Source of the DNA: a virus
Reading direction: 5' to 3' (one strand)
Virus record (IMG/VR): IMGVR_UViG_3300042893_001581
Location: 43,969-107,968 of that record
Length of the DNA: 64,000 nucleotides
This document shows positions 23,875 through 41,602 of this stretch, piece after piece. Every line of letters begins with the position of its first letter. Position 1 is the stretch's first letter. Below the pieces are notes generated by a model. It was not told the DNA's origin and did not search any database. It was given only the letters and a program-made list of their open reading frames with translations. The translations under genes were made by a program, and so were the position numbers.

Positions 23875-24669
23875 CTAGTTTGAGTAAGCGCTAGCTAAAC
23901 TCCACAGGCCTTGGTTGATATTGAAGTCCTCTATAGGATTCTTGATCGCCCTAGCTTGACGGTTGTTTAATTGGAACCCACCCTTAATAAGATTCTCTTG
24001 TACGGTATTGTAAGTGTGCCACAAGGTAGGCTGCGCATCGATCTTACGTTTAGCATTTAGAATGTCTAGTACCTCGTACTGTTCAGGCTGACGATCATCT
24101 GAAAGTCTTAAGGCCAATGCTTCTACAGCAAACTGGTATCTTTGCTTATCAGTCATCTCGATCATATTCCATTTGCTTATGGTATTAACTACGCCTTGGA
24201 GTCCAGATACCTTCTCATCAATAAGGTTCTTAACCTCTTGGAAGTTCATCTTGGTGTGGCGCTCTCTAAAGGAACCCATGTCCTTGTCCTTGATAACCAA
24301 ACCATTCTCACATACAAGACGGAACAAGCCCATCTCGAATTGAATTGGTCTAGTGCCATCATGAGAGTTGATAAGTACAACCTCAGGCCTTGCTTCGATC
24401 TTACCCTGTGGGTCTTTAATGTAGAGGTCAGGGTGTTGGAAGCGGGTGATGTGTATGCCCCAATTCTTACGGAGCTCTACGTTAGAACTAGATTGCTTTA
24501 CTCCTGTCAATACGTAACCCATATCCTGCATGTGGTCGATAACCTCAAACGTAGGAGTGAACTGGTACTTCGGACTTTTGATAGTCGGTGCAGGTGAAGT
24601 AGCAAAGATAGCTGGAGCGATTTGTCTTGCAGTGTCGAGAGAGATAGATGTAATAGTGTTCAAATTCAT
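23875..24669 (-). CDS. DUF932/DUF945-family protein
   Basis: APAIFA...S.KYQFTPT..VID, EVVLINSHDG...FEMGLFRLVCENGLV, RH, LW.TYNTVQENLIKGG, NQGLW. Confidence 0.85.
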   Translation of the reverse strand: MNLNTITSISLDTARQIAPAIFATSPAPTIKSPKYQFTPTFEVIDHMQDMGYVLTGVKQSSSNVELRKNWGIHITRFQHPDLYIKDPQGKIEARPEVVLINSHDGTRPIQFEMGLFRLVCENGLVIKDKDMGSFRERHTKMNFQEVKNLIDEKVSGLQGVVNTISKWNMIEMTDKQRYQFAVEALALRLSDDRQPEQYEVLDILNAKRKIDAQPTLWHTYNTVQENLIKGGFQLNNRQARAIKNPIEDFNINQGLWSLASAYSN

Positions 24670-24735: not shown

Positions 24736-25014
24736 CTAGTATCTGTTAATGATGTCACTGATCTCTTTATTCCTTTTCATTTCCTCTAGTGAACCGTACC
24801 TAAGGCCGATCTGAAAGAAGTCTAAGGCAGTTCCAGTGATAATGAACCTACTCATGTTTCCGTCCTCATCCTTTTCTACATCCATCTGGATCCTGTCATT
24901 CACCCATAGGTCTGAACTGTAGAGGTTCTCATTGATGGTGTCAACGGCCTTTTTAATGAATTCGTAGTTACGTACTGAGGAGAGGATAAGCTGTGTTCTG
25001 TCTGTCATTGTCAT
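24736..25014 (-). CDS. early hypothetical protein (first gene of cassette 1)
   Basis: Start reassigned to ATG 25014 inside the shared AATCAATAATGA leader. Confidence 0.75.
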   Translation of the reverse strand: MTMTDRTQLILSSVRNYEFIKKAVDTINENLYSSDLWVNDRIQMDVEKDEDGNMSRFIITGTALDFFQIGLRYGSLEEMKRNKEISDIINRY

Positions 25015-25180
25015 TATTGATTGGTATATAGTAAAATTAAGACATTCCAGTGACATAAAAAAATATTTAGGCAACTATTTTGAAAAGTTTTTATTGAGAA
25101 TCAATCAGTTATAAGTCGTTGGTAATCAATCTCTTATATACGTAAATATCCTTTCTAACTTATTGGGTATCAATCACTTA
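25011..25180 (-). promoter_or_regulatory. early promoter cassette 1: -7 box plus three 25-bp palindromes
   Basis: TAATTTTA at 25032-25039; palindromes 25087-25111, 25112-25136 and 25156-25180. Confidence 0.8.
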
Positions 25181-28357: not shown

Positions 28358-28774
28358 TTAGGCGGCATTCATTACGAATGCTTTACACGCCCAATTCTTA
28401 GCATTGACATACGCATACTGTTTTTGAGAATATAGATTCGTGTCAATCCAATAAGAGTTGATAGTACCGACAGTAAGATCTTTAAGTATCTCCTCATCAA
28501 TCACGACAACTTTTTTACCTTTTCTAGCGAATACAGTAAGCCAGTGCTGTCCGCCTTCTGCCATGAATTGGATAGTTTGAAGTGAACCCTTTTTCCAGCT
28601 AGACAACAGTTGAGCAGGTCCAAAATTATTAGCCATGTCATCGTTATATTTTGCTTCCGCAATACTCATGAACCCGGCTTGACATTTGTAGACGATCCTG
28701 TAAGATCCTTTTTGTTCTCTGATAAAGTTACAGGTTCCGAGTCCGAGGGTGTTGATAATCTTGTTCATATTCAT
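28358..28774 (-). CDS. early hypothetical protein (first gene of cassette 2)
   Basis: ATG lies within the AATCAATAATGA leader. Confidence 0.8.
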   Translation of the reverse strand: MNMNKIINTLGLGTCNFIREQKGSYRIVYKCQAGFMSIAEAKYNDDMANNFGPAQLLSSWKKGSLQTIQFMAEGGQHWLTVFARKGKKVVVIDEEILKDLTVGTINSYWIDTNLYSQKQYAYVNAKNWACKAFVMNAA

Positions 28775-28922
28775 TATTGATTTGTTACATAGTAAAATTA
28801 AGACATTTCACTCAAATAAAAAAATTTATTTTAGTCTTTTTTAAAAATTTTCGATTGAAAACCAATCAGTTATAAGTGGTTAAAAACCAATCAGTTATAA
28901 AGTATTGATAATCAACCAGTTA
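28771..28922 (-). promoter_or_regulatory. early promoter cassette 2
   Basis: TAATTTTA at 28793-28800; palindromes 28848-28872, 28873-28897 and 28898-28922. Confidence 0.8.
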
Positions 28923-28923
28923 T

Positions 28924-28953
28924 AAAAAAGAGGCCCGGATAGATATCCAGGCC
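28924..28953 (-). terminator. intrinsic terminator of the HTH gene
   Basis: GGCCUGGAU-AUCU-AUCCGGGCC followed by UCUUUUUU; the U-G wobble pairs only on the - strand. Confidence 0.85.
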
Positions 28954-28980
28954 GAAATAATCAATAATGATAGAGGTTAT
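28924..28980 (-). ncRNA. candidate 3'UTR-derived antisense sRNA
   Basis: Contains UCAUUAUUGAUU (28959-28970), exactly complementary to five start-codon regions, 5 nt before the terminator stem. Confidence 0.4.
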
Positions 28981-29225
28981 TAAGCCTCCAAGCTAGAAAG
29001 CTTGTACACATTAGACTTACGTCCACGTGTCATGTCGTAAGCTTCATTAACGATACGATCGTTGAAGTACTTACCTGTTAGTACGTCAGCCACATGAGTG
29101 GTAGAAAAACCGGTTGTCTCAGCAACTCTAGTTACATCTCCAAGACGGAGCTTTCTGTTTACACGACTAACTTTCTGAATGTAGCTCAATTTAGTGTAAG
29201 AGCTCGGGCGATTTGAATTTTGCAT
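28980..29225 (-). CDS. small helix-turn-helix DNA-binding protein
   Basis: LGDVTRVAETTGFSTTHVADVLTG is a Cro/LacI-type HTH pattern; basic, 81 aa. Confidence 0.7.
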   Translation of the reverse strand: MQNSNRPSSYTKLSYIQKVSRVNRKLRLGDVTRVAETTGFSTTHVADVLTGKYFNDRIVNEAYDMTRGRKSNVYKLSSLEA

Positions 29226-29315
29226 AACTGTTTTTTTGTTGTTTTTTAATATATATGTAAATTAAGACGTTTTTCTGTATTATAAAAATCTATCTTTAGA
29301 GTAGATAAGTTTTTT

Positions 29316-29510: not shown

Positions 29511-29613
29511 AACCTTTATTGTTTTAATTTATTTGTATCACCATATTCTAGTTTATTTTTATTCCTATATTGGTAATATTAGTACTAATTTTGGAATAAT
29601 TCTAAACTATTTG

Positions 29614-29690
29614 TAGTCAGGGCCGGACTCGAACCGGATAAGCAACTCATTAAGAGACTTGGGACCATCCCGCATTACACCCACCTGACT
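29614..29690 (-). tRNA. degenerate tRNA or tRNA-like RNA (nominal loop CU-UAA-UG)
   Basis: Perfect acceptor stem AGTCAGG/CCTGACT and T-arm CCGG-TTCGAGT-CCGG; D and anticodon arms non-canonical; 3' end ACAA, no CCA. Confidence 0.6.
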
Positions 29691-29921: not shown

Positions 29922-30164
29922 CTAAAGATAATCTTGGATGTCGTATGAATGTTCTGTCTGATAGATCTTGACAATACTATCTCCATGAAATTCAATACTC
30001 TTTTTTAGAGCTTCACGATTCTTGACAGGATAATCAAGTATCCCACCGTTAGGATGTCTTAATTCGACCCTTACGCAATCGTAAGACTCAATGTATCCGG
30101 TAAATTCTGCGTCAAACTGTTCTTGTTCTGTCTCAAAAGTGAATTTAAATTCTGTCATAGTCAT
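29922..30164 (-). CDS. early hypothetical protein
   Basis: Start reassigned to ATG 30164 in AATCAATAATGA (MTMTEFKF), which removes the overlap. Confidence 0.75.
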   Translation of the reverse strand: MTMTEFKFTFETEQEQFDAEFTGYIESYDCVRVELRHPNGGILDYPVKNREALKKSIEFHGDSIVKIYQTEHSYDIQDYL

Positions 30165-30187
30165 TATTGATTTATTGTTATTCAAGA

Positions 30188-30427
30188 TTAGGCTTCGATA
30201 TGGACACCAAAAATGTAAGAAGTAACTTCGCATTCAAGGTTTAGCATTAAGTCGCCAGGTCCGATATGACGCCTAACAAATGATTTGTCTATGTACAGAC
30301 CATCTAGAGTGACAGTATCGTCATTCTTAAAAGATTCAAAATAATCCGCAGTCCTGTTCAAGCATCTGCTTCTGAGGGCGGCTGTCAATTGCGGGAGGTT
30401 CATCCTGTAGTTACTAAGCATATTCAT
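30188..30427 (-). CDS. early hypothetical protein (first gene of cassette 3)
   Basis: ATG lies within the AATCAATAATGA leader. Confidence 0.75.
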   Translation of the reverse strand: MNMLSNYRMNLPQLTAALRSRCLNRTADYFESFKNDDTVTLDGLYIDKSFVRRHIGPGDLMLNLECEVTSYIFGVHIEA

Positions 30428-30576
30428 TATTGATTTGATACATAGTAAAATTAAGACATATTTTTGACATAAAAAAATTTATTTTAGTTTTTTCCAAAAG
30501 TTTTTATTGGAAATCAATAAGTTATAACTGATTGGTTATCAATTACTTATATAAATGGTTGAAAATCAATAACTTA
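30424..30576 (-). promoter_or_regulatory. early promoter cassette 3
   Basis: TAATTTTA at 30446-30453; palindromes 30500-30524, 30525-30549 and 30552-30576. Confidence 0.8.
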
Positions 30577-36655: not shown

Positions 36656-37534
36656 TTATTCAGCATTTTGTTTTTTAGCGTATTGCCTATTGTATCTATC
36701 GGTTGTATATCTACTATCACTTTCAGATCCACCATTCTGCCAATTAAATACATCTTCGACAAAATCATAGAACCTCTTAGTAGTTACTGTAATTTCTTTA
36801 AGTGAATGACTATCATTAGAAATCTCTAATGTACATTTGTACTTGTTTAATTCTTTCACTTTGAAAGCACTTACATATACATAATCCCATTTGCTTCTAC
36901 CTATTTGCAATTTCATTTGGTGTTTCACATCTTCCAAAGTAACTTCACCCGTATCATAATTTCTATTGATATACTTCTTAGTGTTTAGTTCACATGAGAA
37001 GCCAACTTTTTTATATTGATTCTTTGCTTCATTAGCAATCTCGCTCTTTGTATTACTAATCGTAACACGCAACTCTGAGCACTCTCTTTCCATTTTATTG
37101 GCTTCACGATATATCTCTAAGAATGCTGGACTCCACTCATGCTTGAACTTGCTTTCTATCTCTTGAAACTTAGCAGCTACAGCTCCGAATATCTGTACAT
37201 CGGCTAGAACAAATCCGTCTTTTGCCGTAGCTCTAGAACTATACCAACTGAATTCGGCATACTTAGATCTATTTTCACTTCTATAGTCATGCATTAGAGA
37301 AATGGTGCATGAATTCCAACGCGCATGCTCTTCGAATTTCATTATCTCAATCCTGTCACTAGTAGCTACTATTTTTTGGATTAAATTAGATACGTTTTCT
37401 TGGAACCAAGATAAGATAGCGGCATTTTGTGCTTCATACGCTGGCTTGACTACATTATTTTCGTAGACTTCAACTTCTGATTCTTTTGTCTTGAGCTGTG
37501 CTTCTAGAGCCGAGAGGATAACTTGCTTATTCAT
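36656..37534 (-). CDS. early hypothetical protein (first gene of cassette 4)
   Basis: 292 aa with coiled-coil segments; AAAGGTTATG start. Confidence 0.8.
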   Translation of the reverse strand: MNKQVILSALEAQLKTKESEVEVYENNVVKPAYEAQNAAILSWFQENVSNLIQKIVATSDRIEIMKFEEHARWNSCTISLMHDYRSENRSKYAEFSWYSSRATAKDGFVLADVQIFGAVAAKFQEIESKFKHEWSPAFLEIYREANKMERECSELRVTISNTKSEIANEAKNQYKKVGFSCELNTKKYINRNYDTGEVTLEDVKHQMKLQIGRSKWDYVYVSAFKVKELNKYKCTLEISNDSHSLKEITVTTKRFYDFVEDVFNWQNGGSESDSRYTTDRYNRQYAKKQNAE

Positions 37535-37688
37535 AACCTTTATTTGTTTGATATATAGTAAAATTAAGACATTCCGTCGAAATAAAAAAATTTATTTTGA
37601 TCTTTTTTAAAAATTCTCGATTGAAAATCAATCAGTTATAAGTAGTTGATTATCAATAAGTTATAAGTGATTGAAAATCAATCAGTTA
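37532..37688 (-). promoter_or_regulatory. early promoter cassette 4
   Basis: TAATTTTA at 37559-37566; palindromes 37614-37638, 37639-37663 and 37664-37688. Confidence 0.8.
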
Positions 37689-37996
37689 TGAGAGGTATAC
37701 TTCAGGATTAGTTGGTCTATGATCTGTTTATCCGATTGATCAAATGACTTTTTATTTTGAATCTTTTTTACATAGTCAATATGCTTCTCAACTACTTCTA
37801 ATTTAATCGCATAATTTAAATGCTTGACTTTATTCTCTGTTGCAAATTTATATTCTTGAGTGAGGATCTCTTTTAGTGTTTGTACTTTTCTAATGTAGTT
37901 ATTTTCAATTTCTTTTTTATTAAAATGTTCTTTAGCTTCCATCGCCTTAACTAACTTATCTCCCATTTTGCCTAAAGAATATTTCTTATAATCCAC
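37682..37996 (-). CDS. hypothetical protein
   Basis: 104 aa, coupled to the holin-like gene; stop codon lies in the distal palindrome. Confidence 0.75.
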   Translation of the reverse strand: MDYKKYSLGKMGDKLVKAMEAKEHFNKKEIENNYIRKVQTLKEILTQEYKFATENKVKHLNYAIKLEVVEKHIDYVKKIQNKKSFDQSDKQIIDQLILKYTSHN

Positions 37997-40324: not shown

Positions 40325-40669
40325 TTATAGATTTTGAGAATAGAATGCAGTGTGAGCCATGTCTTCATAGTCAGGCATATCGCTATCGCTTTCTAATGCA
40401 CTGCCTCCGTGCCATTTAGTCACATACTCGTTCCAAGTCATACGACCTTCATTATAAGCGGTCTCGTCCTTTTCTTGATTAATAGGCGGAGCAAAGATAA
40501 AGTTATCTTGGTCGATAACAAAGTTAACCTGGCAGTCAGGATGAACTTCTCTAAATACCTGGTGGTTAGCCTCGGCAGTTGCAAAGTCGCCATTAACTGT
40601 AATTGTATTGTCAATGACTGTCTCGTGGGTAAGGTAGTTAAAAACGAAGATCTTGATGTCCATATTCAT
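40325..40669 (-). CDS. early hypothetical protein (first gene of cassette 5)
   Basis: ATG lies within the AATCAATAATGA leader. Confidence 0.75.
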   Translation of the reverse strand: MNMDIKIFVFNYLTHETVIDNTITVNGDFATAEANHQVFREVHPDCQVNFVIDQDNFIFAPPINQEKDETAYNEGRMTWNEYVTKWHGGSALESDSDMPDYEDMAHTAFYSQNL

Positions 40670-40819
40670 TATTGATTTGTTTCATAGTAAAATTACGACA
40701 AATTTTTGACATAAAAAAATATTTTTAGTCTTTTTTTAAAAATTGTCGATTGGAAATCAATCAGTTATGCAAGCGATTGAAAATCAATAAGTTATATAGT
40801 ATTGGAAATCAATAAGTTA
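40666..40819 (-). promoter_or_regulatory. early promoter cassette 5
   Basis: TAATTTTA at 40688-40695; palindromes 40743-40767, 40770-40794 and 40795-40819. Confidence 0.8.
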
Positions 40820-40849: not shown

Positions 40850-41602
40850 TTAGTTTCTGATGTCTATAAATTCGGATCCGTCATCCTGATCTTTGTAGTC
40901 TATAAGATCTTCGTCTTTGAATAATACATCTCCTGAGTTATCTAGTCCTAAATTTTTTAGATGTTCATAATAGAAGTCATCGAGTTGATATATCTCTTGT
41001 ACTTCTTCTTTTATTTCAAGACTATCAATAGGAACCGACTCTACTCTTTGTATCATTTTACTTGTAAACGGATCTCCTACATAAAGGAAGTAGCAGTTAT
41101 AACATTGCCATTGTAAATTCTCAAGTCTCCAATCACTCTTCTTTCCATTTTTAAAACTAAGTAAGAGTGGAACTTTCATGTCTGTTAATCTTTTCTCTGA
41201 GAACTTGCACGATGAACATTGGTATCCAAGTCTACCATCTTTCATTAAAGCTTCTTTGAGCTTCGCTATTCTCTTTGAATTAATAGGTTGGCTCTCTTTA
41301 AGCATTTCATCTAAGTCAACTTTCCATTTAGAACCTGCAAGATTTTTAGGTACTCCTCTACCAGGAATATTCTTGTGTATTTCAAATAAAGTCTTTCCTG
41401 TTTCTTCATCTATATAAGACTTAGCATATTTCTTATATGTTATATCTGTAATGCCAAGCCATCTAGCAGCTTCTTTATTACTACGACTATTTGCCATAGC
41501 TTCTCTAAGTTGCTCTTCTGTTAATTGAAGCCCTTTATTCCACCAAGTATCTGGTCTGGCTTCTCTAGACATGTTTTCTTTTGTAAAAAAAGCTTTAGGC
41601 AT
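40850..41602 (-). CDS. HTH plus degenerate HNH/Zn-finger protein
   Basis: SNKEAARWLGI HTH; CSSC...LLLSFKNGKKSDWRLENLQWQCYNC lacks the HNH histidines. Confidence 0.7.
   Translation of the reverse strand: MPKAFFTKENMSREARPDTWWNKGLQLTEEQLREAMANSRSNKEAARWLGITDITYKKYAKSYIDEETGKTLFEIHKNIPGRGVPKNLAGSKWKVDLDEMLKESQPINSKRIAKLKEALMKDGRLGYQCSSCKFSEKRLTDMKVPLLLSFKNGKKSDWRLENLQWQCYNCYFLYVGDPFTSKMIQRVESVPIDSLEIKEEVQEIYQLDDFYYEHLKNLGLDNSGDVLFKDEDLIDYKDQDDGSEFIDIRN

Follow-up and report, generated by a model that had tools for sequence, protein, structure and literature searches.

A small gene in a phage genome, encoding a helix-turn-helix (HTH)-like protein, is followed by an untranslated stretch that repeats, in inverted orientation, the start region of several other genes. 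Does this stretch silence many genes in trans, hide the start site of the gene next to it, serve as a protein site on the DNA, or do nothing at all? We addressed this question in the window, which is the whole stretch of 64,000 nucleotides of viral DNA that was analysed, and in related loci.

The phage is an uncultured freshwater T4-type phage that belongs to a widespread group of lake phages. A baseplate wedge protein is encoded in the window, and relatives with the HTH gene and the promoter cassettes described below encode the T4-type gp23 capsid protein. A blastn search against a cultured-phage collection returned no similar DNA. The window is A+T-rich (30.7% G+C), the majority of its genes lie on the minus strand, and their starts are preceded by A-rich runs; no Shine-Dalgarno sequences were found in the window. 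Part of the same strand (42699-63281) is taken up by a long sugar-metabolism block with several glycosyltransferases, a DegT-type aminotransferase, a GDP-mannose 4,6-dehydratase and a thiamine-pyrophosphate enzyme.

The inverted leader copy and the promoter cassettes

The locus contains the following features, given in the direction of transcription.

29250..29300, minus strand: promoter-like block of the HTH gene, GTCTTAATTTACATAT (direct reading; an equivalent block is found in relative L002 at 13874)
28980..29225, minus strand: HTH-like gene, an 81-aa ORF (ORF list) with the double stop TAA TAA at its end
28954..28979, minus strand: 3'UTR "leader mirror" TAACCTCTATCATTATTGATTATTTC, 26 nt, an inverted copy of the cassette leader that contains TCATTATTGATT (plus strand 28959-28970)
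28924..28953, minus strand: intrinsic terminator with a 9-bp G+C-rich stem, a 4-nt loop and a U tract (sequence reading)
28852..28925, minus strand: array of three ~25-bp operator-like units, TTATAAC-TG-ATTGA-N3-TCAAT (alignment)
28789..28851, minus strand: cassette core promoter with an A/T tract, -35-like ATTTGA/ATGTCA and the block TAATTTTACTAT at 28789-28800 (cassette alignment; 76 instances in relatives)
28766..28788, minus strand: leader GTAACAAATCAATAATGAATATG of the downstream gene, with the 12-mer at 28771-28782, a first ATG at 28772-28774 and the conserved ATG at 28766-28768
28358..28774, minus strand: downstream 138-aa gene, the adjacent target (ORF list)

On the minus strand, the TAA stop of the HTH gene occupies 28982-28980, the UTR starts immediately after it, and the terminator stem begins 26 nt past the stop. 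The hairpin consists of GGCCTGGAT-ATCT-ATCCGGGCC (28953-28932) and is followed by TCTTTTTT (28931-28924). The 93-nt 3' end of the HTH gene has a folding energy of -29.5 kcal/mol (z -4.9), and the hairpin is retained in all relatives, with compensatory changes on both sides in two of the seven pairs. The first-pass annotation had placed the antisense stretch before a terminator, and it does lie directly 5' of this conserved hairpin. The promoter of the HTH gene shares its core with the cassette promoter and has no operator array, and the HTH gene leader is long, A-rich and without complementarity to the mirror. We found no family for the downstream 138-aa gene in Pfam or PHROG, and the gene at this position varies among relatives. 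Several relatives have a DUF932 gene directly after the HTH terminator; in the window, a DUF932 protein (Pfam E 2e-28) is encoded at 23875-24669 (-), with the start context AAAGGTTATG. Two genes upstream of the HTH gene lies a tRNA-like sequence (29613-29690, minus strand; anticodon loop CUUAAUG). ARAGORN reports it when the score threshold is lowered, as "tRNA-Stop (tta)", which is an ochre-suppressor type; neither ARAGORN at default settings nor Rfam calls it. A similar sequence is also found upstream in L056. The HTH gene of the window, as noted, ends in TAA TAA.

The 81-aa protein is probably an HTH DNA-binding protein. Its relatives number 146 in environmental data, 21 of them in viral contigs. 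The protein has a conserved segment, GD(V/I)TxVAxxTG(F/Y)SxxHVSDV. The AlphaFold model has five helices (pLDDT 75), and residues 30-49 form an HTH-like segment. Similarities to known regulators are weak: the best PDB profile matches are Cro proteins (E 0.16-0.27), Foldseek finds 434 Cro, C proteins and DdrO at E ~1, and the structural matches by VIA are MuB-N, HipB and XRE proteins (Z 4-5). A LacI-family HTH aligned with an rmsd of 2.0 Å over 41 residues at 27% identity. There was no Pfam or PHROG match at E <= 0.01, and thus no curated HTH family. The earlier label of the gene as HTH is plausible, given the model and the Cro-, XRE- and LacI-type matches, and is not proven.

The 12-mer AATCAATAATGA has six exact copies in the window. 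Five lie on the minus strand at gene starts (25011, 28771, 30161, 30424 and 40666), and one lies on the plus strand at 28959-28970. This last, inverted copy sits between the stop of the HTH-like gene and the strong conserved terminator, so the tail of the HTH transcript is exactly antisense to five start regions, as had been noticed at first reading. By chance, ~0.03 exact copies of a 12-mer are expected per window strand and ~8e-6 within one 26-nt UTR. The 12-mer is predicted to form duplexes of -12.5 to -14.7 kcal/mol with the five leaders, and the UTR:leader duplex of -13.0 kcal/mol was equalled by none of 1000 shuffled UTRs. Considering the expected copy number and the shuffles, the observation is confirmed, and chance cannot account for the exact 12-nt inverted copy. 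Every leader contains a pair of in-frame ATGs, as in ATGAATATG. Of these, the second is the conserved start, as the fifth cassette (37534) and the relatives show, and therefore the 12-mer covers the leader and the upstream in-frame AUG.

Four of the five leader 12-mers sit in copies of a ~165-bp cassette, which occurs five times in the window. Besides the copy behind the HTH gene, these copies and one remnant are the following.

24999..25162, minus strand: cassette copy, leader 12-mer 25011-25022
30161..30172, minus strand: leader 12-mer that has no cassette and is read as a remnant (in relatives, the homologous gene follows a complete cassette)
30413..30576, minus strand: cassette copy, leader 12-mer 30424-30435
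37526..37689, minus strand: cassette copy with the variant leader CAAACAAATAAAGGTTATG, without the 12-mer (alignment)
40655..40818, minus strand: cassette copy, leader 12-mer 40666-40677

Each cassette is composed of three operator-like units, an A/T tract, the promoter block and the leader. The units are palindromic and regularly spaced, and in the window they are confined to the five cassettes. The junction between adjacent units (TATCAATACTTTA; 28852-28925 and the other four cassettes) would fit the IHF consensus WATCAANNNNTTR. An HNH endonuclease-like gene (PHROG E 4e-8) at 40850-41602 (-) lies directly upstream of the 40666 cassette and may be relevant to cassette mobility. The arrangement recalls the PeSLs of T4-type phages, described as repeated promoter-leader-start codon units that shuffle small genes and have a TAYWAT -10 element (PMC4122927, PMC2839356). 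TACTAT in the cassette block agrees with this element (PMC4122927), and ATGTCA lies 17 nt upstream of TACTAT. Dispersed repeats of promoter, leader and start are present here (five copies in the window, 76 in relatives), while a stem-loop is not present in each copy. Since the leaders belong to a PeSL-like repeated cassette, the sameness of the five presumed targets is inherited and not convergent. We therefore read the five leader copies as one cassette or its remnant by shared descent, not as independent targets.

A second antisense seed, AUAACCU, had been proposed to extend the target set. The seed exists: the window has nine copies of AGGTTATG, compared with 2.7 expected, and eight of the nine lie on the coding strand. 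When aligned with ATAAAGGTTAT, the match can be extended to 10 of 11 bases. A recurrent start context (A)ATAAAGGTTATG(AAT) is found at 24669, 29510, 36561, 37534 and 40238 on the minus strand. The duplexes of this seed (-8 to -10 kcal/mol) are not significant, as 3-13% of shuffles reach the same energies. AGGTTAT is frequent, with 16 copies on the coding strand, and the seed is absent beyond the near-identical clade of the window itself. These three results rule out the second seed as independent evidence. The seed may belong to a single, longer mirrored leader, AATCAATAA...AGGTTAT (compare the L101 leader).

The mirror in related phages

We compared 21 viral and 80 metagenomic loci, whose HTH proteins share 41-100% identity. 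In relatives with 77-100% HTH identity, the mirror is found at the same position. Apart from the lineages that lost the mirror, the UTR resembles the inverted adjacent leader across the loci with a terminator and a cassette downstream. Alignment of 11 sequences from 8 clades gave scores of 10-13 and shuffle p <= 0.016 for nine sequences from six clades; L054 had p = 0.04 in the shuffle test. In the window clade, 12 nt match exactly, as does TAT across a 1-nt gap, whereas in L100 the exact match is 15 nt long (TATTCATTATTGATT). Matches in other clades are interrupted: 15 of 17 columns in L048, where CATT stands opposite AUG, 16 of 18 in L052, 15 of 17 in L051 and 14 of 15 in L056. The L163 alignment has 19 columns and a score of 13, with ATCCTTT opposite AAAGGAT.

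The mirror and the leader differ between clades in step. The AUG-proximal leader types AATGAATATG, AACAGAATG and AAAGGATATG are matched by the mirrors TATTCATT, CATT-TGTT and ATCCTTT, respectively. MAFFT set the mirror boxes of the clades out of register, and formal pair counts were replaced by pairwise alignments and a permutation test. In this test, based on clade representatives, the UTR was fitted better by its own adjacent leader than by the leaders of other clades (p = 0.002-0.016; at least three clades). The expectation that seed and leaders co-vary in relatives was thus borne out for the mirror, which is conserved and tracks the adjacent leader, and failed for the AUAACCU seed, which is not conserved.

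Conservation of the mirror stands out against the neighbouring gene. Four-fold degenerate sites of the HTH gene are only ~50% identical between clades, so synonymous sites are near saturation, whereas the mirror is ~75-80% conserved and its consensus TTATTGATTGTTAC persists between clades. Because neutral sequence should be scrambled at this divergence, the mirror appears to be held by selection. It is also confined to one place. Across 76 cassette instances there is one mirror per genome, at the HTH junction, and the top upstream complementarity lies almost exclusively directly 5' of the HTH terminator, with two non-HTH sites tying at 12. Other cassettes have upstream complementarity of 6-12, through their array units.

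Several lineages depart from this pattern. The mirror is absent from L101, L106, L157 and L169, in which the cassette is present, and the mirrors of L054 and L055 are closer to the canonical AATGAATATG leader than to that of their own neighbour. These losses and mismatches suggest that the mirror is selected but dispensable. Where the adjacent cassette is absent, in L058 and L059, the mirror differs from that of the near-identical L060 at five of eight positions between identical flanks. In L128 and L129, a 3-nt deletion lies inside the ATTGAT core of the mirror, and both flanks are kept. In the genome of a lineage without the adjacent cassette (G005, 47% complete), only non-canonical leaders were seen. 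Two further observations concern these loci. The mirror of L058, L059, L132 and L136, in which the adjacent cassette is absent and the flanks are as in L060, is a perfect palindrome, CCAATGATTGG. L128 and L129 have ~190 nt of extra sequence with two further hairpins between terminator and cassette (0-400 nt past the HTH stop). Judging from the compared loci, we conclude that the feature is real, selected and specific to the junction between the HTH gene and the cassette.

Explanations for the mirror

Selection most probably acts on RNA complementarity, because a DNA site accounts neither for the clade-specific matching nor for the L128/L129 deletion, and 0 of 72 loci are inverted. The tail RNA and the leader RNA of the next gene probably pair, which would block translation of that gene. 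As to where this pairing takes place, we tentatively favour cis masking, in which transcripts that have passed the terminator would conceal the start site of the gene downstream. Such transcripts would start at the array-less promoter of the HTH gene, pass the terminator and carry both arms. The mirror would then pair with the leader and AUG ~170-200 nt downstream. This pairing would hide the start site, since this phage, having no Shine-Dalgarno sequences, depends on an open, A-rich leader. The downstream gene would be translated only from transcripts of its own cassette promoter, which lack the mirror. The HTH protein may bind the arrays, and masking would insulate a regulated gene from transcription of its probable regulator. 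The mirror:leader duplex could also serve as an RNase III site.

Several features of the locus are consistent with cis masking. In the predicted read-through RNA, the minimum-free-energy fold closes the mirror:leader helix in seven of nine clades, with 14-20 expected base pairs. The helix of the window covers the first AUG and stops 3 nt short of the conserved AUG, that of L048 covers the AUG, and those of L052, L060 and L163 end beside it. About 170 nt separate the mirror from the -10 block downstream, with the terminator and the arrays in between, and the mirror is therefore outside the promoter-initiated transcript. In most clades it contains GTTAC, which pairs with GTAAC, a segment located between TACTAT and the likely start. 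Were TACTAT the -10 element, transcription would start 6-8 nt later and GTAAC would be absent from promoter-initiated mRNA; because GTAAC precedes this likely start, the GTTAC:GTAAC pairing would form only in read-through RNA. A local role, in cis or on the adjacent target, is also suggested over a genome-wide one, because the mirror tracks the leader of its neighbour, the L058/L059 mirror differs, and the HTH gene has a non-complementary leader and an array-less promoter. Other features argue against cis masking. The arms are separated by a strong terminator of canonical form, which may make read-through RNA scarce. The loop of 150-360 nt is far above the T4 examples, the L054 and L055 mirrors prefer the canonical leader over that of the neighbour, and four lineages (L101, L106, L157 and L169) lost the mirror. 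The window clade retains exactly the stretch common to the five leaders while GTTAC has decayed, which would fit a role in trans equally well.

In the trans reading, close to that of the first-pass annotation, a terminator-protected HTH mRNA tail of ~55-60 nt would accumulate, pair with leaders that carry AAUCAAUAAUGA and block the cassette genes together. We regard this as possible but doubtful. The seed has the typical architecture, directly before the intrinsic terminator of the parent mRNA, it matches five leaders exactly at the energies given above, and a single mirror per genome sits at a regulator gene. Moreover, the mirrors of L054, L055 and L052 fit canonical leaders elsewhere better than their neighbour. 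Much depends on the start of the cassette mRNA, for which the sequence offers both TAATTT and TACTAT as candidate -10 elements. With TAATTT, the predicted mRNA would begin at the G of GTAAC, and the mirror would span exactly +1 to AUG of promoter-initiated mRNAs, that is, the whole 5'UTR, as a trans antisense RNA would look. The tail could then be a trans-acting antisense RNA against a mobile cassette family, with one transcript supplying the DNA-binding regulator together with an RNA that silences its regulon; this fuller version we think rather unlikely. With a start 6-8 nt past TACTAT, no more than 5-7 nt of the mirror in sister clades would be complementary to mRNA made from the cassette promoter, with energies of -5 to -9 kcal/mol. 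Also against trans action, the mirror follows the adjacent leader in its variable part too, and not just in the part common to all leaders, it differs in L058/L059 where the adjacent cassette is absent, and the second seed adds neither significance nor conservation. The seed lies partly within a weak local 4-bp hairpin, and the locus matches no Rfam family: nothing reached the gathering score over the whole window, and around the locus there were only sub-threshold chance matches to PrrF and frnS (E 0.06-0.17). For T4, no small RNA that acts in trans has been characterised (PMC3014915), and none is known in T4-type phages. Thus, of the proposed multi-target silencer, the non-random antisense stretch before a terminator stands, while its five targets turn out to be copies of one cassette and the complementarity in sister clades lies largely in GTAAC, leaving 5-7 nt in the probably transcribed leader. 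A multi-target small-RNA regulon is not the most likely reading.

Pairing of RNA is not the only way to account for a conserved mirror. The mirror could be a DNA-level site, bound by whichever protein occupies the arrays (the HTH protein and a host factor are candidates), and looping might let such sites act together. Such a common site is a fair rival, because units, leader and mirror have ATTGAT/ATCAAT in common and the leader, when inverted, agrees with unit 2 of the 40666 cassette at 15 of 19 bases. The complementarity of mirror and leader would then arise only from this kinship. We hold this DNA-level reading to be improbable. The palindromic, regularly spaced units, the GATTGGT versus GATTTGT variation found in all three element types, and the conservation of GTTAC in the mirror although GTAAC is probably untranscribed promoter DNA also agree with a DNA site. 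Such a site should follow one consensus, yet the mirror follows the clade-specific AUG-proximal leader (TATTCATT, CATT-TGTT or ATCCTTT), is present at only one cassette per genome, and in L128/L129 has lost 3 nt of the ATTGAT core but kept both flanks. The mirror is also nearer to the inverted leader than to the units: the UTR scores 10-15 against the former and 5-9 against the latter. The alternative raised at first reading, that the 12-mer is a decayed fourth array half-site, is disfavoured by these scores, and a decayed fourth unit is less likely than an inverted leader, though unit and leader are themselves related.

The mirror might also have no function, as the relic of a single ancient inverted leader duplication beside the terminator that decays in each lineage. 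Different clades do retain different parts, four lineages have lost the mirror, L054 holds a long copy of a leader type unlike that of its neighbour, and PeSL-type cassettes are described as recombination hot spots (PMC2839356, PMC4122927). A decaying relic would hardly stay ~75-80% conserved beside four-fold sites at ~50%, and a single decaying copy cannot yield at least three leader types with matched mirrors; we consider this explanation improbable too. Finally, mirror and leader could be the inverted repeats of a ~200-bp promoter segment flipped by a recombinase. Inverted repeats of 12-20 bp do flank the promoter segment, and the matching forced on them would also give co-variation. Yet none of the 72 loci with enough downstream sequence was inverted, 45 of them having arrays in forward orientation, and no recombinase gene adjoins the segment in the ORF list. 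With both orientations thus not found, an invertible promoter is rejected as highly improbable. The probability left by all these readings belongs to explanations that we have not thought of. The most fitting description of the locus is a 3'UTR leader mirror beside a PeSL-like cassette, and the earlier antisense idea is partly supported.

Comparison with known systems

Like Cro/cI/XRE and LacI-type regulators, the HTH-like protein is a small protein, predicted to have five helices, that is encoded beside palindrome arrays. It differs from them in having no family-level sequence match and only weak structural matches (Z 4-5), and its binding to the arrays is a prediction. The mirror itself resembles 3'UTR-derived bacterial small RNAs, of which CpxQ, DapZ and SroC are examples. 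As in these RNAs, the complementary stretch lies directly 5' of an intrinsic terminator and several mRNAs have complementary start regions. In contrast to them, the putative targets here derive from a single cassette, and the mirror is conserved in step with the leader beside it.

Phage lambda sib provides a parallel for read-through. In lambda, int is subject to retroregulation by sib through RNase III. In both cases, read-through of a terminator makes an RNA duplex that is missing from terminated transcripts and alters the fate of the message, if cis masking holds here. Lambda sib acts on the upstream gene via RNase III, whereas the expected effect here is on the downstream start site, with RNase III being only a possible participant.

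The cassettes themselves resemble PeSL/PmSL cassettes (PMC2839356, PMC4122927). Both are dispersed units that combine a sigma-70-like promoter and an A/T-rich region with a leader and a start codon; they are set among small ORFan genes, and their downstream genes vary between relatives. The cassettes here differ by their three operator-like palindromic units and the lack of Shine-Dalgarno sequences. They also have a stem-loop directly upstream of the promoter only in the copy that follows the HTH gene; the other copies have arrays. An inverted leader copy was not among the features in the PeSL descriptions compared (PMC4122927).

The closest parallel to cis masking comes from T4, in which the start sites of genes e, soc, 49 and I-TevI are hidden in transcripts initiated upstream (PMC3014915). 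There, as predicted here in a T4-type phage, an upstream arm lies before the gene's own promoter, the other arm covers the leader and AUG, and masking occurs only in the longer transcripts. The arms are a few tens of nucleotides apart in T4, compared with 150-360 nt here, where they enclose a strong terminator, an operator-like array and a whole promoter. Furthermore, the upstream arm is here the 3'UTR of another gene, and the promoter is that of a repeated early-type cassette and not a late one. If the mirror acts in trans, it would be a compact protein-plus-RNA double switch and, as an antisense RNA, would give T4-type phages their first described regulon under a trans-acting small RNA. If its action is in cis, as we tentatively favour, it would be a new way of insulating a regulated gene from the transcription of its neighbour and would show initiation control in phages without Shine-Dalgarno sequences. 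Either way, PeSL-like cassettes could carry extra regulatory layers. The known start-site masks of T4-type phages are short local hairpins, whereas the mirror described here spans a terminator and a whole promoter cassette.
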